A stretch of 64,000 nucleotides of DNA from a virus. The stretch spans positions 32,001-96,000 of IMG/VR virus record IMGVR_UViG_3300045988_171958, one strand, 5' to 3'. The notes under the pieces were generated by a model. That model did no database searches and was not told the DNA's origin. It was given only the letters and a program-made list of their open reading frames with translations. Shown in pieces: positions 2,369 to 48,637 of the stretch (position 1 is the stretch's first letter; the number at the start of each line of letters is the position of its first letter). A program made the position numbers and the translations under genes.

Positions 2369-2401
2369 AATATTGTCTATATTAGTATTGATTTAAAATT
2401 G

Positions 2402-8502: not shown

Positions 8503-10155
8503 TTATAAGAAGAAGAACTGTATTGGTTCTACTTGCTGTTGAGTCATATCATCATAAGTCATAGTACATTTATGGATGATTGGCATTTCTAAATTTGTTT
8601 TAAGTCTTATATTTCCAACTTCATCTAATCCAATCATATCTGACTTATCATATATTGTTCTTATATCAACATAACTTAAATCTTTAGATGATGTAAAATG
8701 AAGTTCCTTCTTATTCCAATAACCCTTGTATCTAGCTATCTCATCTGCTTCTGATATGAAATCTAAATCAAAACTAAGTAATCCTGTGGTATTTTCTATA
8801 ACATACGATATCAATTCAGATTTACTTATAAATAATGTATCAGTAGGTAATGACATGAAGTAATTAGATATTACATTAGTTATGCTATTTTTTATAGAAT
8901 CTTTTATTGTAGATGTCGATAGCTTTATATAACACATGATAGAATATCTTCTTATTATTGGATCTACAAAAGTAAGGGAAGTACCAACAAAAGCCTTATT
9001 TGATTGTTCTAAAGCCTGAATAATCATAGATTTTTGATTATCAGTCAATAACATAGATTCTTTACTTAATTTCAAATAATCACTTGGGGTGGATAAATGA
9101 TCTTTAAATTTAGAAAATGCAATACAAGTTATCTTTGTAGAATTTCTAGATGACATCAAATTGAATTGTCCAACAAATGAAAATCTCTTTAAGAACATTT
9201 TGAAATTGTCTTCACTTGCTAATACTAAAGATCGAGAATTCATACCAACTAATTCTTTTACATTTGCGATAGTATCGGCATCTGTACCTCCACATATATA
9301 GCTTGTTATTGTGATATTTAGCAAATCATTAGCTTCTACTAAATCTCCAATAGAATTTCTTATGGAAGATTTGAATTTTAAAGTAACATCATCTGATGGT
9401 GAAATATTTCCAAGACTTCCATCATGTGATATGTATTTTACAGTTATTTGGTCTCCTTCATTCAAATTGTGACCATGATATCCATTACCAAACATAACAG
9501 AGAAACCTCCATCATATCCATTCTTTACTACACAGCTATGTTCATCTTCTATCATATCATACAAACAACTTGATATTGACCATCTTTCTCCATTCACATA
9601 TACTTTCATGTGATTGATATCATACAAGCTATTTACTTCTGCCTCTATTGTTTCCAATGGTTCTCCTTTAGCTGTAGCTGTTGCTCTTTTCCAAGTACCT
9701 TGTAAAATAGATATGGAATGTGTTACTAATGGCTTGCTCATATCTATTACTATAGAATCAACTGGTAAATCAACTGAATATGTTACACCGGTTGACTCAT
9801 TCATCAACTGACATTCATCTTCTATAACTATCTTATCTGTTGAATTAGATATCTTATTAGAAATAAGCACAGTACCTGAAGCTGAAGCGCCATAATATGC
9901 ATCATATCCGCTTATCTTTGCTAAACTATATATTGATTTCTTTCTAGTAGCAGTAAATATATTCTGTTCTGTCATAGCATCTTCTATGTAGAACATCATA
10001 TTTTGCATGACACCCTTTATTCCTTCTAATACGGATCCAAATATTGATGATTGAGAATATGCTTGTCCTAAACCACCAAATGATTTGTTGAGAAAATCCT
10101 GCATGGTTTCAGAAAAATTCTCATAAGATGTCTTTAATATTTCAAATAGTCTCAT
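8503..10155 (-). CDS. baseplate wedge protein, gp6 / Baseplate_J-like
   Basis: 550-aa ORF that starts immediately after the stop of the gp25-like gene. The size, the synteny (W then J) and the N-terminal region resemble the Baseplate_J family. This is recognition by eye only. Confidence 0.5.
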   Translation of the reverse strand: MRLFEILKTSYENFSETMQDFLNKSFGGLGQAYSQSSIFGSVLEGIKGVMQNMMFYIEDAMTEQNIFTATRKKSIYSLAKISGYDAYYGASASGTVLISNKISNSTDKIVIEDECQLMNESTGVTYSVDLPVDSIVIDMSKPLVTHSISILQGTWKRATATAKGEPLETIEAEVNSLYDINHMKVYVNGERWSISSCLYDMIEDEHSCVVKNGYDGGFSVMFGNGYHGHNLNEGDQITVKYISHDGSLGNISPSDDVTLKFKSSIRNSIGDLVEANDLLNITITSYICGGTDADTIANVKELVGMNSRSLVLASEDNFKMFLKRFSFVGQFNLMSSRNSTKITCIAFSKFKDHLSTPSDYLKLSKESMLLTDNQKSMIIQALEQSNKAFVGTSLTFVDPIIRRYSIMCYIKLSTSTIKDSIKNSITNVISNYFMSLPTDTLFISKSELISYVIENTTGLLSFDLDFISEADEIARYKGYWNKKELHFTSSKDLSYVDIRTIYDKSDMIGLDEVGNIRLKTNLEMPIIHKCTMTYDDMTQQQVEPIQFFFL

Positions 10156-10509
10156 TTATCTGTATTGATATTTCTTTTCTTTAACTAGATTACCAGTATT
10201 TGGTGCTTTTAAACCTATCTTAACCTCATATATGTCTCGCAAAGATCCTTTTATGACGTTTACTTCTATGCTTACATTCAACTTATTGCACCAATAGGTA
10301 TTTTCTATTATCTTTCGTTGTATGTATGATTGTACTTCCATAGGAGATGGAGTCATTTGCCATAAGAACTGTTCCATGTTTACCCCGAATCCTGGGTTTC
10401 CTAAAACTTGAGTACAATTAGTTCCAAGCAACAAATCTAATTCTTGTATGGCAGCATCATAAGGGGATTCTATTACTTTGCTATTATCTAATGCAAGATC
10501 TATTTCCAT
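10156..10509 (-). CDS. baseplate wedge protein, gp25 / GPW-like
   Basis: 117 aa. ..IQELDLLLGTNCTQVLGNPGFGVNMEQFLWQ.. resembles the T4 gp25 core (..TRKGSRPFDPEFGCDLSDQLFE..), and the size is typical of GPW/gp25. Confidence 0.65.
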   Translation of the reverse strand: MEIDLALDNSKVIESPYDAAIQELDLLLGTNCTQVLGNPGFGVNMEQFLWQMTPSPMEVQSYIQRKIIENTYWCNKLNVSIEVNVIKGSLRDIYEVKIGLKAPNTGNLVKEKKYQYR

Positions 10510-10511
10510 TC

Positions 10512-12323
10512 TTATTCTATAGTATAATTTCCAGTAGATATGTATTCATTTTCAGAAGTCAGAATATCATATTTTCCAGTTGCTTCATTTATAAGCTTAG
10601 AATTTATATTGAATATTACAAATGAAGATGTTCTTGAACTTTCATGCCACTTGTTTTCTCCTATTGACAATATGAATTCATCTACTTTGTTTACATAAGA
10701 AGATAATGATATTCCAATGTTTTGTGCCATGTTTGAACGCAATACTATATTCTGCAACTCTTGAACTTTAAAGAATATTGGTTTGTAAATTATTCTTGGT
10801 TGAACAGAATTCTTTTGTATTTGCTGTTTGTCATCATTACTCTTTACTATACGGCAATTCATATTGCTTATGAAGTTGAAATTCTCTTTATTCATATCAT
10901 CAATATCTGTTTCTTTTTTCTTTATAGACAATCTAGTATACTGTTGTTCATTTATTGTATATTTCAATTTGTCTTTGGTAAATAATACAGTAGGAGAAGA
11001 ACAGTTCTTACCAATAGCTCTGTCTTCCATTATGAGTCTTACATAAACATTATCTGGTACTTGTGACCATTTAGAAAATAGGTCTTTCATAGGAAACAAA
11101 AAGTCATCAACCCTATCAGAATATGATATTTCTTCATGTATTATGTTTTTTGACAGATAGTCAGAAGAAACAATACATGTATATTTTACCATTTCTAAGC
11201 TATCACCTAAAATTTCTTTCAAATCTTCATAATCTTTAGCCTTTTCTGATAATAGCTTATATTTAGAAAAATCAGTACTATATATTCTTTGCCAAGCAGA
11301 TTCTATAGAAGAAAATGATTCTGGATAGCAAAATCTACCAACTACTGATATTGTACCATCTATAAATTCAAATGATGCTTTTATTGACATTTTAAAGTCG
11401 TCGACAAAATAACAAGAAGCCGGTTTAGCATATTTGTTTATAGTGAATATTCCATTATCTGATATTGATTTCCATGGATATAAAGTCATGTTTAATGAAA
11501 TCATTTCAGGAATAGAATATGGATTTTCAACGTATTCTTTCATTTCTGTTCCATCATCTTCCTTATGATATTTCCAATAATGCAACAGTAAGTTCATATC
11601 TGCTAATTGTATGCATCCATTTTTTGGATTTTCTAATTCCCTATATACCTGGTAATCCGTATCTTTATGAATGGTTCTATTTAAAGCATTAGTTTCTTCA
11701 GCATATTTTATCTTATCTTGTGAATATTCATTTCTGAATATCAATGATGGTTCTTCTATATATGTAGAACCATATAAAACATCTCTAAAGTCAGGAATTT
11801 CTATTTCAAAATACTCATTGTATATATCCTGATTTAATCGTCTTTCTTTACCAGTATGTTTATCCTCACATTTTATCATATCACAGTACCAATGGATATG
11901 TAAAGAGTTTACCCAGCTATCAACATACAATATCATGTTACGATTCAAATCAGTTGTTGGATGCCATATTCTAAGCTTTATTGTTTTAACATTCTTTATA
12001 TATAGATCTTCATCAAGCAATCTGTTGTATGAATATCCACCCAATGTAGAATCATGTTCTGGAATTGAGTATTCATGTTTAATAGATTCAGAAAATGCAT
12101 CTGAATTTGTTGACATCAACGGAATTCCTGTTGTATTAGTAGATGGCCATATTTTAGGGGTACCCCTATCTATTGGAGCTAAGTATATATCTGTATCTAT
12201 GGTCATATCATTTATGACATCAGTATTTCTGAATGCAACATATTGTTTAGTAGAAATTATATCAGAATCAATCATTTCTACTAAATATTTATCTCCATTT
12301 ATTATGATTGTGTTGCTTTTCAT
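10512..12323 (-). CDS. putative baseplate/tail structural protein
   Basis: 603-aa ORF directly upstream of the gp25-like gene (3-nt gap). Function is inferred from position only. Confidence 0.45.
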   Translation of the reverse strand: MKSNTIIINGDKYLVEMIDSDIISTKQYVAFRNTDVINDMTIDTDIYLAPIDRGTPKIWPSTNTTGIPLMSTNSDAFSESIKHEYSIPEHDSTLGGYSYNRLLDEDLYIKNVKTIKLRIWHPTTDLNRNMILYVDSWVNSLHIHWYCDMIKCEDKHTGKERRLNQDIYNEYFEIEIPDFRDVLYGSTYIEEPSLIFRNEYSQDKIKYAEETNALNRTIHKDTDYQVYRELENPKNGCIQLADMNLLLHYWKYHKEDDGTEMKEYVENPYSIPEMISLNMTLYPWKSISDNGIFTINKYAKPASCYFVDDFKMSIKASFEFIDGTISVVGRFCYPESFSSIESAWQRIYSTDFSKYKLLSEKAKDYEDLKEILGDSLEMVKYTCIVSSDYLSKNIIHEEISYSDRVDDFLFPMKDLFSKWSQVPDNVYVRLIMEDRAIGKNCSSPTVLFTKDKLKYTINEQQYTRLSIKKKETDIDDMNKENFNFISNMNCRIVKSNDDKQQIQKNSVQPRIIYKPIFFKVQELQNIVLRSNMAQNIGISLSSYVNKVDEFILSIGENKWHESSRTSSFVIFNINSKLINEATGKYDILTSENEYISTGNYTIE

Positions 12324-12478: not shown

Positions 12479-14245
12479 TTATGAATCTATTGATACTACT
12501 AATGGGTCACCAATAGTAGATGGAGCAACAGTTATTTCATCTTCTGGTCTTGGCAATACACCTGAAGAAATGAGTTTTCTAACTAAATGATCTGTCTTTT
12601 CTCCTAAAGCATCTGTATCAATATTCTTTATTCTAAAGAAGTACTTGAAGTGTGAATAGTCAGATAGTTGTACTCCATAAAGATAAGAAGTATCAAACCA
12701 TTTTCCTGCACCCGCATATATACCACAATGATTCAATATAGTAGATTCATTCTTTACACCTATATCACCAGGTTTAAGATCATCAACAGATATTCTTTCC
12801 CAATCATTATCACTGAATAAAGTGAAGAAGTCAACACACATGTTAGGTGTCTTTACATTCAATGCCTTCTTCATTACATATTTGATATATCCAGAACAAT
12901 CCAATCCATATTCTGGTTTGTCTTTACCATGTATCTTATAGAAAAGACCTGGTTGCATAAGTAAGCAGTTGTACATTACTTCTTGTCTCTTACTAGATAT
13001 AAGTGACCAGTCATGTTCCCAAAGTTCAAGAATAGTATTTTTGTCGTATGATGTAAAGCATCTGCCTTTGTCTTGGCCAAATTCAAAATCATCAGTATGG
13101 TAGATAGCATTCTTCTTCATGTATGCTTCTATCTTATCTATCACAATGTCAAACATATTATGCTTGATTTGTTGTGATATTCCTTGAACACCCGGACTTG
13201 AATTATATTCTATTACAAAGTCACCATCAGTACAAGCCATCAAGTCAATACCAACCCATCTGCATCCAGAAAGCTTAGCAACCTTCAATGCAATTTCTTT
13301 TTGCTTGTCTGTCATCTGGTATTCTTCTGTCTTAGCTCCTAATGAGACATTGCTTCTGAAGTCGCCACTTATCTTATCACGTTTCATACAAGCAAGTATC
13401 TCATAATTAGCACCATCAACGGAAAATGCATGTACACGAATGTCACCAGTATTCTCTTTATATTCTTGTATGATGAATTCTGCTTCTTTATCCACAGCAA
13501 ACATAGCTTGCAGTATTCCTTCTATTTCATCATGATTGCAGATGAATACACCAATACCAAGACTACCATTCAGTATCTTTACTACGTATTGTCTGTTTTC
13601 TTTCAGTTCATTTATGTTCTCATTATCTTTATAGATAGAATCAAGCATCTTCCAGAAACTTTCTCTAGTATCGTGGCATTCTGTATTCAAGTCCTCCATC
13701 AATTCTCTTGTTATCAGTACATATCCTGGCTGTGGAATATTTTCTTTAGCCAATAAGTTAGATGCAAGATACTTGTCAGATGCCATGATGATTTCATCTA
13801 TAGTATTCAGCATGAAGAAACCTTCATATTCAAATGCCCTCATCAACCCAATATAGTTTTTCTTATTGTCATCATTAGCTTGACCTTGGAATATGATAGT
13901 ATCATGAATGTTAGAATGTTTCAATGAGAAATGCATGTCTGTTATATCATCATCTATAGATATGATATGATTAGAATAAGTAAATCGTACTGTTGCTTTG
14001 TTCAACCATACAAGATTCAGCTTTCTCTTATGACAGCAAATAGTCAAATAATCTTGATAAGACCAATCTTCTTCTTTTTCTTCTGCCGCTTCATCGTAAC
14101 TCTTTACTTTCTTTTCTCCAACATAGAAGCATATTACATTCTTTATTTCTAACTTGGTATCATTTTTCAGAAGCGTCATTGCTTCATTTATGTTTGCATG
14201 CCCTATGTTCTTATATTCTTTTTCCATTTTATTTACAAAGTTCAT
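12479..14245 (-). CDS. RimK-like ATP-grasp ligase fused to a C-terminal NlpC/P60 peptidase domain
   Basis: ATP-grasp motifs: VVKILNGSLGIGVF, GDIRVHAF, RSNVSLGAKTEEY and WVGIDLM..EYNSSPGVQG. NlpC/P60 motifs: GLDCSGYIKYV (catalytic Cys) and LNHCGIYAGAGKWFDTS (His). Confidence 0.75.
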   Translation of the reverse strand: MNFVNKMEKEYKNIGHANINEAMTLLKNDTKLEIKNVICFYVGEKKVKSYDEAAEEKEEDWSYQDYLTICCHKRKLNLVWLNKATVRFTYSNHIISIDDDITDMHFSLKHSNIHDTIIFQGQANDDNKKNYIGLMRAFEYEGFFMLNTIDEIIMASDKYLASNLLAKENIPQPGYVLITRELMEDLNTECHDTRESFWKMLDSIYKDNENINELKENRQYVVKILNGSLGIGVFICNHDEIEGILQAMFAVDKEAEFIIQEYKENTGDIRVHAFSVDGANYEILACMKRDKISGDFRSNVSLGAKTEEYQMTDKQKEIALKVAKLSGCRWVGIDLMACTDGDFVIEYNSSPGVQGISQQIKHNMFDIVIDKIEAYMKKNAIYHTDDFEFGQDKGRCFTSYDKNTILELWEHDWSLISSKRQEVMYNCLLMQPGLFYKIHGKDKPEYGLDCSGYIKYVMKKALNVKTPNMCVDFFTLFSDNDWERISVDDLKPGDIGVKNESTILNHCGIYAGAGKWFDTSYLYGVQLSDYSHFKYFFRIKNIDTDALGEKTDHLVRKLISSGVLPRPEDEITVAPSTIGDPLVVSIDS

Positions 14246-15293
14246 TTATAGCTTCTACTAACTTTTCAAAGAACTTACAATTAGTTTCTTCTATGTTAGG
14301 GTCATTGATAGGAGAGCTCGGTCCAGGTGCACCATTCAATTCTACTACTATAGTGTTTCCATTCTGTAATGGTAGCATGTCAACACCACACCATTCAAGA
14401 CCAGATGCTTTAGCAGCTGCTAAAGCCAGCTTTTCTTGTTCAGAAGTCATCTTGTAGTCATCTTCCATGTCACAACCAAGACTGAGATTAGTTCTGAAGT
14501 CTTTACCTTTCTTTCTCATGATAGAAGACAATATCTTTTGCTTACCATTCAATGTAAGTACATGAGCTCTGATATCACCATCTTTTATATCTTGAAAGTC
14601 TTGTATGAGTATTGGACAGTTTTCCTTCAATTTGAACAAACATTGCAATATAGATACAATGTTTTTGCCACGACAGCAAAACACACCTTTGCCACCATGT
14701 CCATTCAGAATCTTACAAACATATTTTAATCCATCATCAAGCTTACCATAGAGTTGCTTTAGCTTTTCATCTAGCTTCTTATGATCTTCTTTATCTATAT
14801 CACCAGAAGTTGCAAGTACATATTTTGGTTGTGGAAGTTCTGCTTTTGTCAAGAAACATGCAGTTGCATATTTATCAGATGACATAGCTACTGCTTCTGG
14901 ATTGTTCAATATCAGTATATCTAATTCTTGTATAGCATCAAGTAAAGCTGATATCACTTCCTTAGTATATCCACTACGCATCAATACTACTGTGTTCTTA
15001 GAATCTGCTTTAGTAAGTACTACATCTGGCAAGTCTTTCTCTCCACTATATATGTGTACTTTATCATCTTTGAAAGAAAAGTTGAGCTTGGTAGGATCTG
15101 CATATTCTACTTTTATCTTATCTCTCTTAAGCATCTTTACAGAATTCAAGTAAAGTTCACCTATCAATATTATTCTTTCTACTTTCTTAAGCTTAGTATG
15201 ATTTTCTACTTTACTGTTACTGTTTTTTTCTACTATATATTCTATAGATTTCAGTTCAGTAATGTAGTTTGTTCCATTGTACTTCATTTTCAA
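14229..15293 (-). CDS. RimK-like ATP-grasp ligase (paralogue of the previous gene, without a peptidase domain)
   Basis: VCKILNGHGGKGVF, GDIRAHVL, FRTNLSLGCDMEDY and WCGVDMLP..VVELNGAPG align with the neighbour. There is a 17-nt overlap with the downstream gene. Confidence 0.75.
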   Translation of the reverse strand: MKMKYNGTNYITELKSIEYIVEKNSNSKVENHTKLKKVERIILIGELYLNSVKMLKRDKIKVEYADPTKLNFSFKDDKVHIYSGEKDLPDVVLTKADSKNTVVLMRSGYTKEVISALLDAIQELDILILNNPEAVAMSSDKYATACFLTKAELPQPKYVLATSGDIDKEDHKKLDEKLKQLYGKLDDGLKYVCKILNGHGGKGVFCCRGKNIVSILQCLFKLKENCPILIQDFQDIKDGDIRAHVLTLNGKQKILSSIMRKKGKDFRTNLSLGCDMEDDYKMTSEQEKLALAAAKASGLEWCGVDMLPLQNGNTIVVELNGAPGPSSPINDPNIEETNCKFFEKLVEAINELCK

Positions 15294-16254: not shown

Positions 16255-16503
16255 ATGGAAGCAGTTGGATTTATCTTAGTAGGAATATTGATAGGTGCAT
16301 GTTTAGTCACTTTAATGTCATTATGGGTATATCATCAATCATGTCCAAATTATACAGAAAGAGAAACTGGAGTTATTTGGCACTTGAAAACAGTAGCAGC
16401 AGATGCATTTTCTGGTAAAGCTGTCTATATAATGCAATCTACTAAGACAGCAGAAGTATTAGCAATGAATATGCAAGATTTTAACAACAGGTTCAGACAA
16501 TAA
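16255..16503 (+). CDS. small single-pass membrane protein
   Basis: 82-aa ORF with N-terminal VGFILVGILIGACLVTLMSLWV. Confidence 0.55.
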   Translation: MEAVGFILVGILIGACLVTLMSLWVYHQSCPNYTERETGVIWHLKTVAADAFSGKAVYIMQSTKTAEVLAMNMQDFNNRFRQ

Positions 16504-16518
16504 GTTTGAACCTGTTTT
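16488..16518 (+). terminator. intrinsic terminator
   Basis: Stem CAGGTTCA (16488-16495) / TGAACCTG (16507-16514), followed by TTTT. It spans the stop codon. Confidence 0.65.
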
Positions 16519-16535
16519 AGTCTAATTACTATATT
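16505..16535 (+). promoter_or_regulatory. promoter (TTTGAACC-N12-ATTACTATATT) of the U32 operon
   Basis: The -35-like box lies in the 3' arm of the preceding terminator hairpin, the same nested arrangement seen at several other promoters in the window. Confidence 0.45.
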
Positions 16536-16576: not shown

Positions 16577-17722
16577 ATGAGTTGGAAACCTAATTTTGAT
16601 TACAGCAACAAGAACATGAACTTTTATAAAGTTGGTTGTAATTTCGATCCTAAATTGATTGATGTTGCTGTAGAGTTGAATAAGAAATATAAGGGTAAGT
16701 CACAGATTGTAGAATTTTTTGGATCTGATGCAAGTAATGAAGTAGTAACTGCAAGACCAGGTTGGAGATTGCCAGATATTGATAAAGAATTCTTTGCAAA
16801 TTATGTAAAGAAGTTGAAGGATAACAATATCGCATTCAACTATACAATGAATTCAATTCAGCCTTATGGTTCAAAAATGGAAATGCTGAATCATAAGAAA
16901 GATATTCAGGATCTTGTAAAATGGCTAGAAAATATTGGTGTAGCACGTATTACTGTGGCAAACCCAATGATGTTACTTTTTATTAGAGAAGTATCAAATA
17001 TTGAAATTGAGATGTCATGTATTTCTCATATTGATACTGTGACTCAGTTGAAGTATTATCATGAAACATTTGGAGTAAATAAGTTCTGTAATTCAATTCT
17101 TAAGAATCGTAATAAGCATTTCTTAATTAATGCACAGAAGTATTGTGATGAAAATGGTTGCATATTAGAATGTATGGCAAATGAATTTTGTGGAGTAGCT
17201 GGTGTTGATGGAAATGGTACTCATTATGCCACACATTGTGTATTTAGAGATTCTTGCTATCTCTGTCATGCAACAAACAAGACAAAAGAGGATAGTATGT
17301 CTTACAATAATTATCCAATGGGATATTGTATGTCAGCACGTTCATCAACTCCAGAAGCTTGGCTTCGTATGAGATTCATTAGACCAGAGGATCAAAAAAT
17401 TTATCGTGAAAATACTGGTGTAAATTATTTTAAACTTTCTGGTAGAACTGGTACCACAGATTATCTTGAATACATTATGAATGCATATATGTCAGAAAAC
17501 TATGATGGTAATCTTCTTGGTTTGTGGAAACCTCTTTCATCAATTTATGATGGAAAAACAGAATTGAAATCTAAAACAGATATTGATATTCCAAATAAGA
17601 AGCTTGATGGATTCATCAATAAGTGGATGGATGGAAATGGATGGGAATGTGCTGACCAGATGTGTGGTACAACCTGTGATTATTGTGCAAAATTTGCTAA
17701 AGAACATAACTTATATGACTAA
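16577..17722 (+). CDS. peptidase-U32-family protein (RlhA/TrhP/UbiU-type putative hydroxylase)
   Basis: TIM-barrel-like N-terminal half (..VARITVANPMMLLFIREV..IEMSCISHIDT..), a Cys-rich block (ECMANEFCGV..THCVFRDSCYLCH) and ..VNYFKLSGRTGTTDYLEYIMNAY (compare the KIEGR block of E. coli YhbU). Family recognised by eye. Confidence 0.6.
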   Translation: MSWKPNFDYSNKNMNFYKVGCNFDPKLIDVAVELNKKYKGKSQIVEFFGSDASNEVVTARPGWRLPDIDKEFFANYVKKLKDNNIAFNYTMNSIQPYGSKMEMLNHKKDIQDLVKWLENIGVARITVANPMMLLFIREVSNIEIEMSCISHIDTVTQLKYYHETFGVNKFCNSILKNRNKHFLINAQKYCDENGCILECMANEFCGVAGVDGNGTHYATHCVFRDSCYLCHATNKTKEDSMSYNNYPMGYCMSARSSTPEAWLRMRFIRPEDQKIYRENTGVNYFKLSGRTGTTDYLEYIMNAYMSENYDGNLLGLWKPLSSIYDGKTELKSKTDIDIPNKKLDGFINKWMDGNGWECADQMCGTTCDYCAKFAKEHNLYD

Positions 17723-18038
17723 TATAACTAACTCTGATTTGAAACTTCTCAAATCATGCAGAGCAGAAATTACAAGAGGTGACCGGTCATTGGTCAACCT
17801 CTTGATTTCTAGAATGAATAATGCTATATTGATAGGAAGAATCAAGAAGAAAGCAGATGAACCTATTGTACAACCAGACAGATGGAATCATGTAATGAAA
17901 AATGTGCATAAGCAATTAGAAGGTTCAAGACTTAGTACTGAATATAAAGAAGAATTTGACTATCTTATTGATAGTATATTCAATATTATTCATGAAGTAT
18001 CATGTAAATTGCAAGAAAAGGATCATGACAATAGATAA
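17715..18038 (+). CDS. AroQ-class (type II) chorismate mutase
   Basis: LKSCRAEITRGDRSLVNLLISRMNNAILIGRIKKKADEPIVQPDRW aligns with the PheA CM domain ([30 protein letters not shown]..DIDRE), conserving the Arg11, Arg28, Lys39 and Arg51 equivalents; the Glu52 equivalent is Trp. The ATG overlaps the U32 stop region. Confidence 0.6.
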   Translation: MTNITNSDLKLLKSCRAEITRGDRSLVNLLISRMNNAILIGRIKKKADEPIVQPDRWNHVMKNVHKQLEGSRLSTEYKEEFDYLIDSIFNIIHEVSCKLQEKDHDNR

Positions 18039-19137
18039 GAAATTTGTAGACGACCACATGCAAGATAAGAATATCTTGTACATACCTATTATCTCTTCTA
18101 TAAATAGAGAGACAAACAAGTATAATTTGGATAGTGATGGAAATGTAGTACGTTTTATTACATTTTTTGAACATCATAAGAATTTCAATACTTTGACAAT
18201 ATTGCTTCCAAAGAATAATGAATCACATGATATCATTGACAGGTGGGTAAAAGACAATGATAATATTGAAATCATTTGGTCAGATAATTTTGGTAAGCAT
18301 GCTGGTGAACAAAGAAGTGATTCTGATGTTGTGAGTAAGATGGAGATGGAATTGTTTGAACTTATAAATAATCCAGATAATGATAATGATTTCAATATTG
18401 TAATGTTTGAAAGTCAATTTTTAGGAAATTTATTGGTTGACCCATATTGGTTTAAAGGATTTGAAAAGGTTTTCTGGTGTCCAGTTTGTAAGATTGATAA
18501 TGAGCATACAAGAAATTTCTTAGAGGGATATGATAATTTGAATAAGAAATTGTTTCAACTTTCGGATTGGTCAATTGTAGAAAGTCCAACACAACTCAAG
18601 AAATTCTCTTTACCAGAATGTTCAATATACCCTTATTATATGATGATGGATCGCAATCTGAAATATTTTGATTATATGACAGATTTTGGATTGAAAGATA
18701 CTATTAAAACAGTTAAGAATCTTGATACAGGTACTTATTCTATTTATTATATTCCTTATAGATTGACTGATGAAGGATATAAAGTAGATGATGTTATTTC
18801 ATATATTAATTATGACTATGCTGATGTGGTTGTTGTGTATTATACAGATCCAAACAATAGTGGAGCAATGGAAGATTTGAAGAAAAAATTCAATTCAAAT
18901 GTTGTTTTCATCAAATTATCAACAGATAGAAATACACATTTTACCATGTTGTCATCAGAAGATGTTGTTGTACCATACTTTGAAGATTTAGATTTCATCA
19001 ATCATGCAACTTTATGGGAAATGATGTCATCAAAATCAAGATGTCAATTTGGAATAACTAAGGAACAATATGATATGAATTCATATAATATGAAATCTTG
19101 TGATAGATGTTTCTATATTGATTTAAAGAATTTATAA
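18025..19137 (+). CDS. hypothetical protein (possible glycosyltransferase-like alpha/beta protein)
   Basis: 370-aa ORF from the internal ATG, overlapping the chorismate mutase stop by 14 nt (translational coupling). No motif recognised; the suggested function comes from context only. Confidence 0.35.
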   Translation: MTIDKKFVDDHMQDKNILYIPIISSINRETNKYNLDSDGNVVRFITFFEHHKNFNTLTILLPKNNESHDIIDRWVKDNDNIEIIWSDNFGKHAGEQRSDSDVVSKMEMELFELINNPDNDNDFNIVMFESQFLGNLLVDPYWFKGFEKVFWCPVCKIDNEHTRNFLEGYDNLNKKLFQLSDWSIVESPTQLKKFSLPECSIYPYYMMMDRNLKYFDYMTDFGLKDTIKTVKNLDTGTYSIYYIPYRLTDEGYKVDDVISYINYDYADVVVVYYTDPNNSGAMEDLKKKFNSNVVFIKLSTDRNTHFTMLSSEDVVVPYFEDLDFINHATLWEMMSSKSRCQFGITKEQYDMNSYNMKSCDRCFYIDLKNL

Positions 19138-19147
19138 ATGAAATAAA

Positions 19148-20371
19148 ATGAATCATGATAGTATTTTATTAAAAATCTTTTTTAATAAAGAGAATAAGAT
19201 AATTGGAGGAAAAGTAGCAAGGATAAAAAGAATATTCCCAAACATATTGTCTTATTTAAATAAAAGATATCCTGATTCATTTTCTTTAAAAGAAACTCTA
19301 ATTAGGATGAAATATCATATTGATGTTCATCCAAAATGCCCGGTTTGTGGAAATTTTACAAAGTTTTATGGGTTTAAAAATTTGATGTTTGCAAATCATT
19401 GTTCTAACAAATGTACTCAATTAGATAGTGAAACTAAAATAAAATTTAAACAAACTTGCTTTAAAAAATATGGGGTTGATGCTCCAATGAAATCTTCTAA
19501 AATAAAAGAAAAATCTAAACAAGTTTGTTTAGAAAAATATGGTGTGGAAAATATATCACAATTTTTTGAAACTAAAGAAAAATATAAACAAACTTGTTTA
19601 GAAAAATATAATGTTGATAATCCATTTAAATTAGAAAAAACGAAAATAAATTCACATTCAAAAGAAGCTAAAGAAAAGCAAAGAAAAACTTGTTTAGAAA
19701 AGTATGGAGTAGAAAATTCATTCCAATCAAAAGAAGTTAGACAAAAATATAAAGAAAATTATAAAAGAAAATATGGAGTAGAAAATCCATTTCAAAACGA
19801 AATAATAAAAGAAAAGATAAAACAAACTTGTTTAGAAAAATATGGTGTTGATAGAGCAATTAAAAGTGATTTGGTAAAAGAAAAATGTAAACAAACTTGC
19901 TTGGAAAAATATGGAAGTAGTTCACCAATGAAAAACCCATATATTGTAAATAAATCTATAAATAAGAGAATTCAAAACAATACTTGGTCTACTTCAAAAC
20001 CAGAAGAAGAATTGTATCTTTATATAAAAGAAAGATTTCCATCTGTAAAAAGACAGTATAAAGATAAAGAAAGATACCCATATTTTTGTGATTTCTACAT
20101 TCCTGAATTAGATTTGTTTTTAGAATTGAATGGGACTTGGACACATGGAAACCATCCTTATGATATGAATTCTAAAGAAGACAATTCTATATTAAATATA
20201 TGGAAAGAAAAATCTAAAGAACATCCTATGTATTTAAGTGCAATAAAAACATGGGTTGTAAGTGATGTAAATAAGAGAAATAAAGCAAAAGAAAATCATT
20301 TAAATTTTAAAGAAGTTTGGAATTTAGATGAAGGAAAAGAATTTATAAATAAATTAACTAGAAGAGAATAA
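19148..20371 (+). CDS. homing-endonuclease-like protein: Zn-ribbon, eight CLEKYGV repeats and a C-terminal PD-(D/E)XK (Vsr/DUF559-like) domain
   Basis: CPVCGN..HCSNKC at the N-terminus, then 8 copies of K-x-T-C-L-E-K-Y-G-V-x-N. The C-terminus ..YPYFCDFYIPELDLFLELNGTWTHG resembles the D..(E/D)xK nuclease core. Confidence 0.5.
   Translation: MNHDSILLKIFFNKENKIIGGKVARIKRIFPNILSYLNKRYPDSFSLKETLIRMKYHIDVHPKCPVCGNFTKFYGFKNLMFANHCSNKCTQLDSETKIKFKQTCFKKYGVDAPMKSSKIKEKSKQVCLEKYGVENISQFFETKEKYKQTCLEKYNVDNPFKLEKTKINSHSKEAKEKQRKTCLEKYGVENSFQSKEVRQKYKENYKRKYGVENPFQNEIIKEKIKQTCLEKYGVDRAIKSDLVKEKCKQTCLEKYGSSSPMKNPYIVNKSINKRIQNNTWSTSKPEEELYLYIKERFPSVKRQYKDKERYPYFCDFYIPELDLFLELNGTWTHGNHPYDMNSKEDNSILNIWKEKSKEHPMYLSAIKTWVVSDVNKRNKAKENHLNFKEVWNLDEGKEFINKLTRRE
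19441..19930 (+). repeat. in-frame tandem repeats (~90-99 nt units) encoding the CLEKYGV motif
   Basis: AAACAAACTTGTTTAGAAAAATATGGTGT-like strings recur about eight times at ~30-aa spacing. Confidence 0.7.
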
Positions 20372-20373: not shown

Positions 20374-21846
20374 ATGAATGTGATATTAGTAAGTGGTGGA
20401 TTACAGACTAGATTTAATGAACTTTCTTGTTTTCCTAAGATATTGTTGCCATCAAAAGATGGAACACCAATTTTGATTAAGCAATTAGATTATTTTGATG
20501 AAGCAAATACAGTAAGTATCGTTGTAAATCAAAAATTTGCAAAGATCATGAAAGCTTATATTGAAATCAATCATCTTAATGTTGATGTGATTGTATCTGA
20601 TAATACTAATGGTTCAGGCAATACTTTAGCTTCTGTATATGATTGGCTTCCAAAAAAGAATGTTTTGTTTTTCTGGTCAGATATTTTGTTTGATAATGAT
20701 GAATTCAAATTGGATAGAAAAATTGAAGATAAAGACAATTGTGTGATTTTTACTGTAAATGATGCAAAATATCGATATAAGATAGAAGATGGTAAGATTG
20801 TAAACAGATCATTTGCTTATGATGGAAATATCCCAGGTATCTTTTGGATCAAAGATATTTCAGAGGTTATTCCAACTAAACCATGTGATGAAAATAAAGA
20901 TTTGATTGATATCATTCAAGAAAAAGTGAATGATGGTATGATTACTTTTGTTGAGTCAAATATCAATACAAAGATTACTGAATATAAGTCATTATCAGAA
21001 TATAAGAAGATTATGTCAACTTCTTATCAGAAAGATTTAGTTTTACCTACTGATATGGAAGTTTCGTATACTGATAAAGAATCCATGCAATATGTAGCAA
21101 AAACAAATGAGCATTTGAATTATCAATATGACTGGATTTCTTTTTTATCTTATAATCCTGGAATTAGTGATTATGTTGTAGATATGCCAGTAAGTAAGAC
21201 AGAAGACGGATACGTTTGTGATATGCACAATCTTGAAGGATATACACATGCATCAAAGGTAAATCTTACTAATCTTTTAAACAATTTTGTAAGATATAAA
21301 GTAGATGTACCATTGTCAACATCTGTAAAATTTTTGTTAGAAGAATATAATGGTAAACCACTGAAGGGGATTTGTGATACATGCAGACTTTTTGAAAATA
21401 ACAGAACATTTGCAGAAGTTCAAACACTTATAGATAATGCATGTAATCTTCTTATAGATGGTTTAGCGAATGATGAATGGGTATTAACTCATGGAAACAT
21501 CAATTCTCATAATGTTCTTGTAAATATGACTGGTGATATCAAATTGTATAATCCAGTATCAAGAAGAAATGGATCTTTTTTCTGCCATCCAATTGTCGAC
21601 CAATCAGAAGCTTATATGGTAGAGATTGGATTAGATGAAGCTTTGAGAAAGGAAATGACATATAAAGTAGATGAACTTCCAAAGATAGAAGATTGTGATG
21701 TGTTTATTGAAACTGCTATCTATCTTCATTTACTTGGTATGCTTCCAATGTTTGCAAAAGATATTATGAAATTGAATATTGTATTGGAGTATGCTATTTC
21801 AGGATTGTCTAACATAATTAATGAATGTATTGATGGAAACAAGTAA
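20374..21846 (+). CDS. bifunctional sugar-phosphate nucleotidyltransferase / APH-like kinase
   Basis: N-terminal MNVILVSGGLQTRF..PKILLP matches the (L)AGGxGTRL..PK signature. C-terminal LTHGNINSHNVLVNMTGDIKLYNP matches the HxDxxxxN-type kinase loop. Confidence 0.65.
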   Translation: MNVILVSGGLQTRFNELSCFPKILLPSKDGTPILIKQLDYFDEANTVSIVVNQKFAKIMKAYIEINHLNVDVIVSDNTNGSGNTLASVYDWLPKKNVLFFWSDILFDNDEFKLDRKIEDKDNCVIFTVNDAKYRYKIEDGKIVNRSFAYDGNIPGIFWIKDISEVIPTKPCDENKDLIDIIQEKVNDGMITFVESNINTKITEYKSLSEYKKIMSTSYQKDLVLPTDMEVSYTDKESMQYVAKTNEHLNYQYDWISFLSYNPGISDYVVDMPVSKTEDGYVCDMHNLEGYTHASKVNLTNLLNNFVRYKVDVPLSTSVKFLLEEYNGKPLKGICDTCRLFENNRTFAEVQTLIDNACNLLIDGLANDEWVLTHGNINSHNVLVNMTGDIKLYNPVSRRNGSFFCHPIVDQSEAYMVEIGLDEALRKEMTYKVDELPKIEDCDVFIETAIYLHLLGMLPMFAKDIMKLNIVLEYAISGLSNIINECIDGNK

Positions 21847-21931
21847 GTTTAAGACATCAAGAAGAGTATTGAGAGAAGGTTTGACTTGGGCTGATTATTT
21901 TAAGTCCAAGCATACCTTAGAATATATCAAT

Positions 21932-22414
21932 ATGAAGAAAATCATAATTTCTGACTGTGATGGTATCTTGACTGATGGAAATATGACTTATGATGACAAC
22001 AGAAAACGATTTAAAACCTATGGTTGCCATGATAAGGAATTATTCAATATTGCTAAAGACCTTGGATGGGAATTCTTATTTGTAACAGATGATAGGACTG
22101 GATGTGATATTACAGACAGAAGAATAAGTAATTCTTTCATGTTACATGTTACAGAAGCTGATCCAAATGAAAGAGAAAAATTAGTTAAGAAATATAGGGA
22201 TAATGGATACATTGTTGCTTTTATTGGAGATAGTCCAAGTGATGTATCAGCTGCTGTAGCGGCAAATATATGTGCTACTACAGATAATTGCTTTGAATAT
22301 ATAAAACCATTTTTTCATTATGTTTCTAAATATCAAGGTGGACACGGAGGATTTGCTGATATATTATATCAACTAATGCTAATGGATAAAGATGATCTTG
22401 AAATCTATAAGTAA
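21932..22414 (+). CDS. HAD-IIIA phosphatase, KdsC-like
   Basis: MKKIIISDCDGILTDG matches the KdsC DxDGVLTDG motif I, and FIGDSPSDVSA matches motif IV (GDxxxD). The internal ATG was chosen because it sits 6 aa before motif I, as in KdsC. Confidence 0.7.
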   Translation: MKKIIISDCDGILTDGNMTYDDNRKRFKTYGCHDKELFNIAKDLGWEFLFVTDDRTGCDITDRRISNSFMLHVTEADPNEREKLVKKYRDNGYIVAFIGDSPSDVSAAVAANICATTDNCFEYIKPFFHYVSKYQGGHGGFADILYQLMLMDKDDLEIYK

Positions 22415-22470: not shown

Positions 22471-23700
22471 ATGATTAAACATATAGAAGAACCTAGTGGA
22501 AAGGGAAGAATAGCATGCATATCTTTACCAGTAAGACATATACTAGTGAATAGAGACAATATCACCATGTATAATGTATATCATTATTGGAAGTATTTGA
22601 CAGAATTTTTGAAATATGATAAAGTATATATATTGACAACATCGTTGTCTAATTCTGGTGAAAAATATAATAACATATTGAAAGATTGCCCATTGATATA
22701 TGGAATTGAAAAGAAAGACTTGTTATTAGATTATCATATAAATGACATGTGGATTGTTCCAGCTCAGACAAATATATTTGGTGGAATGGCTATTATGACC
22801 TTTCCATTTTGTATGAATAGAATATATGAATGGTGGAAATCAAAATCTGCATCAGATAAGATGATATTCATTAATGATGATCCAGAAGTATGTAAGCTTT
22901 GGTTTTTCCGATATCATACTAATCGTTATGCTATTAAGAAAGATGCAAGGATAGTGTGGAAACAAGGAATAAATCAAGATAATTGGAATACAGAAATTGA
23001 TTTGTTAGAATCAAGATATGATGATATATGCAATATGGAAAATGATTTTGATTTGGCATTTTGTGGATTAGATTATGATAAATATGTTAAAGAGTATGGG
23101 ATAAAGGTCTTGCCAAAATCTTGGTTTAATTTCAATGTTTACTATTACATTACATTAAATGATGATTTAGATTTGAGAATGAGAAATTATGACTTTAATG
23201 ATAAGAAATATTCTGCTTGCTATTATGGATATATTAAAGATTTAGATAGAATAGCTAGAACAGAAGAATTTTACAGTAAAGTTGATAAGCCATTTTTAGT
23301 AATTAAAGGAGGTAGTAAGAATTTCTTTAAACATGTAGATTTTGACCATGATATAGATCTTGTAAAAAATATGCCTTATTCAGATTTGCTAAAATTTGTT
23401 CCATCAAATGCTAAGTCTTCATTAATAACACATAACAAATGTATATTGGGTAATCAAGTATCACCAAGATGGTTTGATTTGATGCTTATGGATATTGTAT
23501 GTTTTGTTGACGAAGCTTTTGATCCAAACCATGAATTGTGTGATGATTGGCTTTATGAACATACATATTGTAAGAATGGACAAGATTATGCAGACAAGCT
23601 TAAGAAAATAGAAAACAACGAACCATTATATAGAGAGATTGTTCAAAGACAACGTAAGTTTGTATTTGAAAAGTATGAAAAATATCTCCCGAAATTCTAA
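22471..23700 (+). CDS. T4 beta-glucosyltransferase-like DNA glycosyltransferase (putative)
   Basis: ..SSLITHNKCILGNQVSPRWFDLMLMDIVCFVDEAFDPNHEL.. resembles, from memory, T4 BGT ..ALIIGDKNYNDNFITLRVWETMASDAVMLIDEEFDTKHRI... The preceding YSACYYGYIKD..R segment resembles VIYGGSFRSGQR. Confidence 0.5.
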   Translation: MIKHIEEPSGKGRIACISLPVRHILVNRDNITMYNVYHYWKYLTEFLKYDKVYILTTSLSNSGEKYNNILKDCPLIYGIEKKDLLLDYHINDMWIVPAQTNIFGGMAIMTFPFCMNRIYEWWKSKSASDKMIFINDDPEVCKLWFFRYHTNRYAIKKDARIVWKQGINQDNWNTEIDLLESRYDDICNMENDFDLAFCGLDYDKYVKEYGIKVLPKSWFNFNVYYYITLNDDLDLRMRNYDFNDKKYSACYYGYIKDLDRIARTEEFYSKVDKPFLVIKGGSKNFFKHVDFDHDIDLVKNMPYSDLLKFVPSNAKSSLITHNKCILGNQVSPRWFDLMLMDIVCFVDEAFDPNHELCDDWLYEHTYCKNGQDYADKLKKIENNEPLYREIVQRQRKFVFEKYEKYLPKF

Positions 23701-23823: not shown

Positions 23824-24426
23824 ATGGAAAAAATTCGGATCATAGTTCTTGAAGGTTGTGATAGAACCGGTAAAGGAACATTATTGGAAAATTTAAAGAA
23901 TAGATTTGATGATTTTTTAGTATATAATCCAGTATCAGCAGAGAAGGAAAAGGTAGATTATAAAAATCCACAGAAATTTGAAGAGTGGATTAAGAAAACA
24001 ATTCGTAAAGTACTTGATGACTTATATACTATGTCAAAGTTGAATGGTACTGATAGACCTATTGTAATGGATCGTCTTTTACTTACAGATAACGTATTTG
24101 CAGATTTATTTGATCGTAAACATGTAGTGGAAAAGTATTTTGGTAGAGAAATTGAAGCAAACTTCAAATTGACTAATTACATTATGCTTTGGAGAAATCC
24201 AGAAGAGTATAAAGATCGAGTAAATTTGTTGAAAGAAAATCAAGATTTTACAGAAAAAGAAATTGATGATATTCTAAGTTTATTCAATGAATATAAGAAA
24301 TCAAATGATATAGTAAAGTTGATTGACAATACAGATACACCAGAAGATATATTAGATGATTTTGTATCAACATTTATTGAAGAAACCCCTAAATGGAAAT
24401 TAGAACATGATAGTACAACACACTAA
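23824..24426 (+). CDS. thymidylate-kinase-like (d)NMP kinase
   Basis: P-loop IIVLEGCDRTGKGTLLENL (compare IxxEGxDGxGKsT) and a downstream MDRLLLTD (DR motif). 200 aa. Confidence 0.6.
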   Translation: MEKIRIIVLEGCDRTGKGTLLENLKNRFDDFLVYNPVSAEKEKVDYKNPQKFEEWIKKTIRKVLDDLYTMSKLNGTDRPIVMDRLLLTDNVFADLFDRKHVVEKYFGREIEANFKLTNYIMLWRNPEEYKDRVNLLKENQDFTEKEIDDILSLFNEYKKSNDIVKLIDNTDTPEDILDDFVSTFIEETPKWKLEHDSTTH

Positions 24427-25009
24427 AACATTGAATTATACAAAACCTACAGATTTGTTCAATTATATTATAGATACATATAAGGATGAACAGTATATGA
24501 AAGATTATGTTCTTAGTGCATCTAGAACAGAAATTTTAGAAGATTATACAAGTAGGAAGAAGGTAATGGTAACTGATGTTTTACCGTTAGGTGAAAAGGA
24601 CTATGATAAAGATGCATTAGATTTTGCTACACAACTTGGATGGGAATTTACATTATATTCAGATAATAGTATATGCCCATTATATGATGAACAGGATTGG
24701 TTAGCAAGTTGGAATTGCTACCATTATGATGATGTAGAAAAAATATGTACTTATATTCGTTCAAAGAGAAATAATGGATATACAACAGCATTCATTGGAT
24801 ATAAGATGGAAGATGTATTTGCAATGTTTGAAGCAAATTATAGTGGTACTTGTGTTGATGCATTACAATATACAAAGCAATATTGTGATTTTGTATCTGA
24901 TAGGACATTCAATTCATTTGCCTTTGCTGAATTGTTAGTACATATAGTAAAACAAGATGTGAAGAAATTCTTAAGAGAAAATTTCCAAAAATATTTTATT
25001 AAAAAGTGA
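24407..25009 (+). CDS. degenerate KdsC-like HAD paralogue (probable pseudoenzyme)
   Basis: QLGWEFTLYSDN and RNNGYTTAFIGYKMEDVFA align with DLGWEFLFVTDD and RDNGYIVAFIGDSPSDVSA of 21932-22414. Motif I is VTDVLPLGE (no DxD) and the motif IV aspartates are lost. Confidence 0.55.
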   Translation: MIVQHTKTLNYTKPTDLFNYIIDTYKDEQYMKDYVLSASRTEILEDYTSRKKVMVTDVLPLGEKDYDKDALDFATQLGWEFTLYSDNSICPLYDEQDWLASWNCYHYDDVEKICTYIRSKRNNGYTTAFIGYKMEDVFAMFEANYSGTCVDALQYTKQYCDFVSDRTFNSFAFAELLVHIVKQDVKKFLRENFQKYFIKK

Positions 25010-48573: not shown

Positions 48574-48598
48574 ATAATTTACATCAATAACAGTTTGA

Positions 48599-48637
48599 AT
48601 GGTCGATTGAATGAATGAAATTTGATCGACCATTTTC
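48599..48637 (+). terminator. hairpin after dnaK enclosing the -35 box of the dnaJ promoter
   Basis: ATGGTCGAT (48599-48607) / ATCGACCAT (48625-48633) followed by TTTT. Confidence 0.6.

Follow-up and report, generated by a model that had tools for sequence, protein, structure and literature searches.

A U32-family protein paired with a chorismate mutase in a gut jumbo phage: a putative oxygen-independent route to hydroxylated and glycosylated cytosine in phage DNA

A stretch of 64,000 nucleotides from the virus record IMGVR_UViG_3300045988_171958 (IMG/VR; positions 32,001 to 96,000 of the record), hereafter referred to as the window, carries on its plus strand two overlapping genes, one encoding a 381-amino-acid (aa) U32-family protein (16577-17722), a predicted iron-sulphur (Fe-S) protein and putative C5 hydroxylase homologous to gp50 of phage RB69, and the other a 107-aa AroQ-type chorismate mutase (CM; 17715-18038; PF01817) that is a putative source of prephenate. 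Judging from family membership, gene linkage and phyletic patterns, we consider it probable, if well short of certain, that U32 and CM form a two-gene module for O2-independent hydroxylation of cytosine at C5, followed by glycosylation, which would give rise to hypermodified phage DNA. A preliminary description of this DNA, made by reading the sequence, had suggested a prephenate-fed, O2-independent pyrimidine hydroxylation run by the phage and followed by glycosylation, and every computational test that we ran favours that suggestion: the homology to gp50, the adjoining glycosyltransferase (GT1), the recurrent linkage of CM, the failure to find a thymidylate synthase (TS) homolog, and the presence of NrdD/NrdG.

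The reading draws on two areas of earlier work. Among U32 proteins, RlhA generates ho5C2501 in 23S rRNA and TrhP generates ho5U34 in tRNA (PMC5727448, PMC6599085), while prephenate is the oxygen donor for UbiU/UbiV and has been proposed by the same authors to serve U32 proteins generally (PMC10990095). Among phages, RB69 and the Acinetobacter phage DLP3 have, in place of cytosine, 5-hydroxycytosine (5hoC) bearing one to three arabinose units (Lee et al., NAR 2026; PMC13326640). The 5-hydroxyl is put on dCMP by RB69 gp48, a flavin-bearing TS homolog that takes 18O from O2, and RNA hydroxylation pathways are discussed in that study with no connection drawn to gp50 (PMC13326640). The statement in the preliminary description that no such route was known held only in part, as the end product, glycosylated 5hoC phage DNA, is published (PMC13326640), while no description of a U32/prephenate route to it was found. 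A literature search linking U32 and phage with prephenate, hydroxycytosine or chorismate mutase returned no relevant paper, with He et al. 2026 and Mahler et al. 2025 lying outside its scope. These two studies (Nat Chem Biol and Cell Host Microbe, respectively) are reportedly cited by Lee et al. for glycosylated 5hoC DNA.

The U32 protein and the chorismate mutase

Both open reading frames (ORFs) named in the preliminary description were recovered, together with the overlaps from which translational coupling had been proposed. The CM start codon (17715) precedes the end of the U32 stop codon (17722) by 8 nt, the gene that follows begins at 18025, 14 nt ahead of the end of the CM stop codon (18038), and identical gene calls are on record for the NCBI contig CACVDK010000001.1 (GCA_902729945.1). 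The U32 protein scored 26.2 bits with the Pfam profile PF01136 (Peptidase_U32; gathering cutoff 22.4), which is also listed for most of its homologs in the precomputed Pfam field, and it was matched over its full length by PHROG 5757, 'peptidase', at 5e-115. Identity to E. coli UbiU, UbiV, TrhP and RlhA is about 17-20% in a MAFFT alignment, and comparison of the U32 family with these four proteins in hhalign gave an E value of 9e-6 and a probability of 83% over residues 64-306. The AlphaFold2 model (predicted local distance difference test score, pLDDT, 90.5; predicted template modelling score, pTM, 0.91) adopts a TIM-barrel-like U32 fold, and its top match in a Foldseek search of the PDB was the U32 protein Mk0906 (5d88; E 6e-8, target TM-score 0.64). 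The fold is thus predicted with confidence; the PDB matches beyond 5d88 were generic barrels, with no hydroxylase-type U32 structure among them. A PDB search with the sequence of the protein gave nothing meaningful, the fold search alone yielding a match.

Conservation of the Cys-rich block, one of the features that had drawn attention to the gene, was read from 124 U32 homologs. Nine cysteines are invariant (C171, C205, C221, C227, C251, C358, C363, C367 and C370), five of them in the core and four in a C-terminal CX4CX3CX2C motif (residues 358-370), which is found in 124/124 homologs, the T4-like ones included, and is not present in the aligned UbiU, UbiV, TrhP and RlhA. Invariant cysteines in both core and tail leave room for two clusters, and the C-terminal motif could hold a second Fe-S cluster or zinc. 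In the core, C221 and C227 fall on the UbiU ligands C169 and C176, and C251 on either C193 (MAFFT) or C232 (hhalign), depending on the method. With the UbiU set consisting of C169, C176, C193 and C232, the invariant C205 and C171 are candidates for the fourth ligand in the phage protein. The second feature noted earlier, the 'KLSGR block' (K286, G289, R290), aligns with the K-I-E-G-R motif of UbiU, TrhP and RlhA, KxxGR being common to them. As a whole, the pattern of invariant cysteines is consistent with Fe-S binding.

The CM assignment is supported by a match to the full PF01817 (CM_2) domain, with 53.5 bits against a cutoff of 27 and residues 15-101 covering profile positions 1-80 of 80, and by matches to the PDB chorismate mutases 3rmi, 1ybz and 6al9 at E ~1e-3. 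Six of the eight active-site residues of E. coli CM are kept, namely the equivalents of R11, R28, K39 and R51 (R16, R33, K44 and R56 in the window protein) and of S84 and Q88, and the two deviations are a glutamine at the D48 position and a tryptophan (W57) at the E52 position. We considered W57 as the loss of a catalytic residue and rejected this, the substitution being universal in the cellular Bacteroidales enzymes that combine 3-deoxy-D-arabino-heptulosonate 7-phosphate (DAHP) synthase (DAHPS) with CM. Because all 120 DAHPS-CM homologs, including those of cellular Bacteroides and Paludibacter, have Q and an aromatic residue (Y, W or F) at the D48 and E52 positions, the deviations are best read as a lineage variant and not as decay, with catalysis remaining putative. 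Of the features whose loss the preliminary description had named as counting against its proposal, three of the four Cys ligands can be aligned and six of the eight CM catalytic residues are kept.

DAHPS-CM fusions also occur directly next to U32, in the jumbo-phage relatives L005 (11139-12236), L024 (10001-11113) and L026-L029, with PF00793 at 112 bits and PF01817 at 38.7 bits. The window CM and the CM domain of the L005 fusion share 51% identity, and the nearest named cellular homologs of the fusion are bifunctional enzymes of Bacteroides and Paludibacter (45-46% identity). By sequence, the stand-alone CM resembles what would remain of such a fusion if only its C-terminal domain had survived. 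It shares with the Bacteroidales enzyme, a type I-beta DAHPS with a C-terminal AroQ domain, the Q at D48 and the aromatic residue at E52, but the window retains the CM domain only, as a gene of its own, and this gene is translationally coupled to U32 rather than placed amid aromatic amino-acid genes. The presence beside U32 of a shikimate-entry enzyme fused to CM argues that the supply of prephenate matters to U32. The CMs of two T4-like phages, Thanatos-1 (L009:10134-10391) and Serratia 92A1 (L010:10388-10645), keep the E52 equivalent and have Val at R51, so that the type found in the jumbo phage and in Bacteroidales deviates in the opposite way.

Conserved linkage of U32 and CM and the TS-type hydroxylase

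To survey the gene neighbourhoods, we used a profile-driven scan of IMG/VR, which gave 34 U32 loci with 10-kb flanks that were scored with hidden Markov models (HMMs) of the cluster families. In 15 T4-like loci the order is AfhE (sugar-1-phosphate nucleotidyltransferase), in some cases a thymidylate-kinase (TMPK)-like gene, U32, CM (in 13 of the 15), TS and GT1, with the TMPK-like gene in other cases at the end, and TS is always adjacent. In the non-T4-like loci, where U32 is 49-94% identical to that of the window, the arrangement is compact and comprises GT1, TMPK, a SIS-domain isomerase, AfhE, a KdsC-like phosphatase and U32; these loci usually hold CM or the DAHPS-CM fusion, one of the two adjoins U32 in 10 of 15 non-T4-like loci, and no TS homolog was seen in such flanking DNA as the loci offered. 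Minimal loci were found as well, U32-(DAHPS-CM)-GT1-TMPK in L005 and TMPK-GT1-U32 in L033, with sugar-activation genes not nearby, indicating that U32 keeps company with the base-side module rather than with the sugar genes.

The linkage extends to well-studied phages. By tblastn, the window U32 is ~47% identical to homologs in 222 T4-like phage records, the homolog being RB69 gp50; the records include Mosigvirus/RB69-like phages, Klebsiella Marfa, Proteus PM2, Serratia 92A1 and Shewanella Thanatos, and each of the 222 U32-positive records shares 80% identity or more with the Bas46 protein. The gene that overlaps the U32 stop codon in Thanatos-1 encodes a CM_2 protein (34.7 bits), and in Serratia 92A1 a CM_2 gene (40 bits) lies one small ORF beyond U32. 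With the 92A1 CM as tblastn query, 50 phage records were retrieved, all T4-like and with Enterobacterales or Shewanella hosts, in which the match, where annotated, typically lies between 'peptidase' and 'thymidylate synthase'. The window CM itself found no match in the phage collection by tblastn, because the T4-like CMs are too distant, and a megablast search of the collection with the cluster gave no match. The co-occurrence of U32 and CM for which the preliminary description had called is thus seen in at least 50 T4-like phage records, in most of the T4-like loci and, in the form of DAHPS-CM, in relatives of the window. In E. coli Mosigvirus (L001:9164-9403, Bas46_0143) and in 92A1 (L010:10167-10391), the end of U32 is overlapped at its stop codon by a conserved ORF of 74-79 aa. 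This ORF was considered as a cryptic chorismate mutase and rejected, as it has no CM_2 signal or family match and the true CM of 92A1 is the next gene.

The clusters of RB69 (gp45-gp55), DLP3 (gp76-83) and HY126 ('Afh') share their component families with the window, including the gp50-type U32 protein, and the window pathway would follow the same scheme, with a 5-hydroxyl handle on cytosine that is then glycosylated from a nucleoside diphosphate (NDP)-pentose. The TS-homolog 5-hydroxy-dCMP (5hodCMP) synthase of those clusters, which uses flavin and O2, was in contrast not found in the window or in related non-T4-like contigs. Searches for this TS homolog, which is marked by a D169N signature, gave none in the 64-kb window (tblastn and HMM), none in the 10 kb upstream of it, and none in the 10-kb stretches flanking U32 in those non-T4-like loci whose flanks were complete. 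Whole IMG/VR contigs were scanned with the two most conserved 5hodCMP-synthase motifs, derived from an alignment that covered T4-like, Acinetobacter, Tenacibaculum and Rhizobium phages, with an exact match to one motif being needed. The scan returned 54 loci, among which were 15/15 of the T4-like U32 contigs and 0/19 of the remaining U32 contigs, one of these 19 being a 282,933-bp relative whose U32 identity is 94%. Together, these searches, which in the source contig covered the window and the 10 kb upstream and in the whole-contig scan relied on exact motifs, strongly indicate, short of proof, that the TS homolog is absent. On a 97-kb viral contig (L050), a U32 relative of 35% identity (9965-11047) lies 3 kb from a gene for a 352-aa protein (13850-14905) with a weak TS-family match (3e-18) and without the 5hodCMP-synthase motifs; this contig may represent another lineage that combines the two enzyme types.

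The distribution of the two enzymes among hosts appears to follow oxygen physiology. The TS-type hydroxylase occurs in 378 records, including 57 from Acinetobacter and 22 from Rhizobium phages, and U32 was found in 0 of these 57 and 22 TS-bearing records, whose hosts are strict aerobes. The cluster of the Acinetobacter phage DLP2, for example, reads isomerase-AfhE-phosphatase-TS-GT1-TMPK followed by two further glycosyltransferases, without U32 or CM. The U32-positive records that were listed or tallied by name are all phages of Enterobacterales or Shewanella, i.e. of facultative anaerobes. The U32-only gut jumbo phage has NrdD/NrdG and Bacteroidales-type genes. The resulting pattern, in which phages of aerobes have TS alone, those of facultative anaerobes have the two enzymes together and the gut jumbo phage has U32 alone, would fit a role of U32 as the O2-independent alternative.

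The modification cluster and the phage

The gene that follows CM (18025-19137, plus strand, 370 aa) encodes the presumed base-proximal glycosyltransferase, GT1, of the family of RB69 gp46:47 and DLP3 gp79. Alignment with the T4-like family by hhalign (probability 95%, E 3.7e-8, 273 columns, motifs in common) places it in this family, at ~21% identity to the arabinosyl-5hoC transferases, and GT1 adjoins U32-CM in all relatives examined. It is separated from the nucleotidyltransferase gene by a gene for a 407-aa homing-endonuclease-like protein (DUF7487; 19148-20371, plus strand; PF24308 at 139 bits, PHROG 'homing endonuclease'). Because this gene is missing at this site in six relatives and lies elsewhere in L024, upstream of U32, it is taken from these comparisons to be a mobile insertion outside the pathway.

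Sugar activation is represented by genes on both sides of U32. A 490-aa AfhE-like sugar-1-phosphate nucleotidyltransferase with a kinase-like C-terminal domain (20374-21846, plus strand) was identified by tblastn with Bas46 AfhE (residues 4-155, 7e-11), by BLASTP against the AfhE-like protein of L032 (1e-29 over residues 2-394) and by NCBIfam nucleotidyltransferase matches; its kinase-like domain reads HGN where the catalytic HGD is expected. A stand-alone sugar kinase of the APH/choline-kinase type (442 aa; 2399-3727, plus strand; PF01636), homologous to the C-terminal domain of AfhE, retains the HGD...IDPRGYFG motifs and matches Bas46 AfhE residues 183-507 at 1e-29 (tblastn) and the L032 AfhE at 6e-20 (BLASTP). 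The activity of the bifunctional AfhE thus appears, by homology, to be divided between two genes 17 kb apart, which distinguishes the window from the RB69 and DLP3 clusters, the kinase domain within the cluster being degenerate and a separate kinase being encoded elsewhere. A SIS-domain sugar-phosphate isomerase (1707-2360, plus strand; PF01380 at 3e-4) is homologous to the arabinose-5-phosphate isomerase of RB69 and Bas46, the Bas46 protein finding it by tblastn at 1.8e-10. The phosphatase gene (21821-22414, plus strand) encodes a HAD protein resembling KdsC and KDN-9-P phosphatase (NF058599 at 9e-14, TIGR01670 at 2e-9, PF00702), with a homolog between AfhE and U32 in L032.

Downstream, a second glycosyltransferase (22471-23700, plus strand) has a C-terminal half resembling beta-glucosyltransferase (BGT; PHROG 7922 'beta-glucosyltransferase' at 1.4e-7, PF13524 at 0.0027); it is missing from L005 and L024 and is presumed to extend the sugar chain. 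It is followed by a TMPK-like nucleotide kinase of the RB69 gp45 family (23824-24426, plus strand; PHROG 761 at 1.2e-9; hhalign against the T4-like gp45 family, probability 93%, E 2.7e-7). The window therefore has a gp45-type kinase and genes for an NDP-pentose, and its phosphatase belongs to a different HAD subfamily, KdsC-like, from that of the RB69 and DLP3 clusters. The sugar-nucleotide, BGT-like and dNMP-kinase-like genes that the preliminary description had listed for the rest of the operon are all present, on weak to moderate family matches. The last gene (24407-25009, plus strand) encodes a 200-aa protein for which searches of Pfam, PHROG and NCBIfam gave no family; it is a distant paralog of the KdsC-like phosphatase and part of the conserved core in relatives, being kept in L003, L005, L006 and L008, while in L007 its sole match falls on the KdsC-like gene (24% identity, 1e-8). 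In four loci GT1 and TMPK form a single ORF (L030:2591-4408, L031:5318-7003, L032:5237-7054 and L048:5237-7054), with the glycosyltransferase at residues ~48-397 and the kinase at ~416-600. Such fusions hint at a physical coupling of the first glycosylation and the nucleotide-kinase step and bear on the question of whether the first sugar goes onto the mononucleotide or onto DNA.

The promoter proposed at 16505-16535 did not withstand closer analysis: a sigma-70-type match of 9/12 is present at 16506-16535, and the region contains 90 such matches where 88.6 are expected in shuffled sequences. Reading of the sequence revealed instead a hairpin with a 10-bp stem followed by T residues, past the stop codon of the upstream gene (16486-16516, plus strand), which overlaps the proposed -35 box and likely marks the start of the U32 transcription unit. 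A terminator scan did not list this hairpin, probably because its 11-nt loop exceeds the limit of that scan.

An identical U32 protein is encoded on CACVDK010000001.1 (293,853 bp), of which the window corresponds to ~92.6-156.6 kb, and near-identical proteins are found on many metagenomic contigs of 280-295 kb and on IMG/VR contigs. The window belongs to a common uncultured gut jumbo phage of ~294 kb and ~30% G+C, and it also encodes a gp32-like protein. Its host is probably a strict anaerobe. Contigs binned in GTDB as metagenome-assembled genomes of 'uncultured Romboutsia sp.' (L012, L013 and L017) are 92-99% identical to the phage DnaK and are probably phage contigs mis-binned by composition or coverage and, as they stand, are not to be taken as evidence on the host; the other matches of the DnaK scan of GTDB genomes were distant archaeal and planctomycete DnaKs. 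The nrdD gene, for the anaerobic ribonucleotide reductase, is split (37880-39397 and 39624-40670, with a 226-nt spacer) and followed by nrdG, which encodes the activase (40718-41275). The split could reflect a small intron or a truly split gene, and an Rfam scan of the whole window, which included the nrdD spacer and group I introns, gave nothing at threshold. Directly upstream of the modification operon and on the opposite strand lie two adjacent RimK-type ATP-grasp genes (12479-15293, minus strand), one of them fused to an NlpC/P60 peptidase domain, and the pair is kept in all relatives. The window further encodes a full-length DnaK (HSP70, 679 bits) together with DnaJ (46618-49705, plus strand) and a single ORF of 2625 aa (55150-63027, minus strand).

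Proposed pathway, alternatives and significance

From the chemistry of the homologs we infer the following pathway, including its substrate (dCMP, DNA or dUMP) and the identity of the sugar. The phage CM would turn host chorismate into prephenate, CM being fused in relatives to DAHP synthase, with which the shikimate pathway begins. The putative Fe-S U32 protein would then use prephenate for C5 hydroxylation, most likely of dCMP to 5-hydroxy-dCMP, in place of the TS homolog of RB69 and DLP3, and the TMPK-like kinase together with host kinases would phosphorylate the product further to the triphosphate used in replication. An NDP-pentose, of arabinose type by homology, would come from the SIS isomerase, sugar kinase, HAD phosphatase and AfhE-like nucleotidyltransferase; the gp46:47-family glycosyltransferase would add the first sugar at the 5-hydroxyl, and the second glycosyltransferase would lengthen the chain. 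In this phage of a probable strict anaerobe, U32 and CM would be the sole hydroxylase, and T4-like phages whose hosts are facultative anaerobes would have in U32 an anaerobic counterpart to the TS-type enzyme. We give an even chance to the broader proposal that phages hold two interchangeable C5-hydroxylation routes, one through a TS homolog with flavin and O2 and the other through U32 with oxygen from prephenate, such that jumbo phages of strictly anaerobic gut bacteria have U32 only, with a prephenate source of their own in CM or DAHPS-CM, and many enterobacterial and Shewanella T4-like phages, RB69 included, have both and could modify their DNA whether or not oxygen is present.

The pathway has precedents in cellular enzymes. 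With UbiU/UbiV, TrhP and RlhA the phage protein shares the U32 fold and the KxxGR motif, and three of its conserved cysteines can be aligned with Fe-S ligands; their dependence on prephenate is mirrored in the linkage to CM; and RlhA and TrhP carry out the pyrimidine C5 hydroxylation that is proposed for it. UbiUV and TrhP are, moreover, O2-independent twins of the O2-dependent UbiIHF and TrhO, in parallel to U32 and TS. The phage protein differs from these enzymes in its distance (~18-20% identity) and its extra C-terminal CX4CX3CX2C, and in being phage-encoded, with a proposed DNA-precursor or DNA substrate and a dedicated supply of the oxygen donor. Compared with RB69 and DLP3, the window U32 has an adjoining CM, as relatives usually have CM or DAHPS-CM, and the genome belongs to a jumbo phage whose host is probably a strict anaerobe. 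A further parallel is the 5-carboxymethylcytosine of Synechococcus phage S-B43, made by CmoA/CmoX, where prephenate is likewise consumed in a DNA hypermodification at cytosine C5 and tRNA-modification chemistry has been borrowed (PMC12783734). In that case, however, prephenate is converted through CmoA to carboxy-S-adenosylmethionine for a methyltransferase-like enzyme (PMC12783734), whereas here it is proposed as an oxygen donor; no CmoA or CmoX homolog was seen in the window cluster.

Several observations weigh against the pathway. The PF01136 match is partial and barely over threshold, with residues 109-170 covering profile positions 3-64 of 233, and no NCBIfam model, including those for UbiU, UbiV, TrhP and RlhA, matched the U32 protein at E <= 0.01. 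Because of this lack of a model match, the phage U32 is placed by sequence in a distinct subfamily and is not orthologous to any hydroxylase so far characterised. Of the four canonical cluster ligands, only three can be aligned, and the spacing is CX5C, not CX6C. In Table 1 of Lee et al., RB69 gp50 is labelled 'sugar or heterocycle reductase' on the basis of its fold match to 5d88 (PMC13326640), and as of 2024 no U32 hydroxylase had been reconstituted in vitro (PMC10990095). A role for gp50 might be given in He et al. 2026 or in Mahler et al. 2025. The exact-motif scan for TS would overlook a divergent TS, and the search of the phage's own genome covered the window and the 10 kb upstream. The oxygen argument leans on a host that is itself inferred, and the contrast between aerobes and anaerobes rests on three or four independent phage lineages. 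Finally, about 40 TS-positive Escherichia phage records have no U32 (177 vs 137), so that U32 is dispensable for at least some enterobacterial phages.

Four other explanations were weighed. The one that survives best is a variant of the pathway, in which a prephenate-dependent hydroxylase acts on another substrate, either dUMP or thymidine-pathway nucleotides, leading to glycosylated 5-hydroxyuracil, or, post-replicatively, cytosine that is already part of DNA; we regard it as unlikely. TrhP does act on uridine, and both RlhA and TrhP act on polynucleotides. As GT1 is only distantly related to the arabinosyl-5hoC transferases, its acceptor base could differ, and with a genome of such low G+C content a T-replacing modification would cover more bases. 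Yet every characterised cluster with GT1, the kinase and AfhE modifies cytosine via 5hodCMP (PMC13326640), and the TMPK-like kinase, always present and at times fused to GT1, points to nucleotide-level chemistry.

A smaller probability is assigned to a function of U32 on the sugar side, where it would tailor the pentose or the NDP-sugar and CM would be unrelated or regulatory. Acinetobacter phages make tri-arabinosyl-5hoC with the same sugar genes and without U32, L005 and L033 keep U32 with GT1 and TMPK where sugar-activation genes are not nearby, and the recurrent linkage to CM and DAHPS-CM would be left unexplained. To our knowledge, no U32 protein acts on a sugar. This explanation draws instead on the reductase label given to gp50 (PMC13326640), on BASEL records that name the homolog 'putative enzyme involved in UDP-arabinose biosynthesis', and on the position of U32 amid sugar-activation genes in most loci.

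Hydroxylation of RNA during infection, in the manner of TrhP or RlhA and with an effect on translation, was the conservative alternative in the preliminary description and appears slightly less probable again, even though the sole characterised U32 enzymes that act on nucleic acids act on RNA (PMC5727448, PMC6599085). It would require the DNA-modification neighbours to be there by chance, whereas U32 is set repeatedly and tightly in DNA-hypermodification clusters of unrelated phage lineages. No tRNA genes were found in the window, the NCBIfam models for TrhP and RlhA are unmatched, and the phage U32 has the CX4CX3CX2C tail instead of the C-terminal extensions of TrhP and RlhA. With RNA as the substrate, the genomes in which no TS homolog was found would also provide no hydroxyl for the glycosyltransferase to act on. 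The remaining explanation, a genuine peptidase (collagenase-like PrtC) with CM as an auxiliary metabolic gene for aromatic amino-acid supply, can practically be dismissed, as the protein owes the database names 'peptidase' and 'collagenase-like PrtC family protease' to the name of its family, whose characterised members UbiU/V, TrhP and RlhA are linked to hydroxylation, the invariant cysteines fit Fe-S binding, and the synteny with DNA modification offers no rationale for a protease.

Both the class of modification and the enzyme family are known, and what is new in the proposed U32-CM pathway is their combination, the replacement of an O2-dependent hydroxylase and the phage-encoded supply of the oxygen donor. 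If the proposal is correct, the window would encode the first viral U32 hydroxylase and the first that acts on a DNA precursor, extending prephenate-dependent hydroxylation from lipids and RNA to DNA precursors. The small soluble substrate, dCMP, could possibly make it the first U32 hydroxylase amenable to in vitro reconstitution. RB69 gp50, a strongly conserved gene of the newly described pathway, would gain a function, and dual aerobic and anaerobic routes would be predicted in well-studied coliphages. A viral DAHP synthase-CM enzyme that feeds an oxygen donor would constitute a new kind of metabolic takeover. U32 beside a gp46:47-type transferase may serve as a genomic marker of glycosyl-5-hydroxycytosine DNA in uncultured gut phages, which matters for evasion of restriction and CRISPR, for sequencing artefacts and for phage therapy. 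The pathway would also account for the way in which phages of anaerobes, or enterobacterial phages in the anoxic gut, make a modification whose sole known hydroxylase needs O2.

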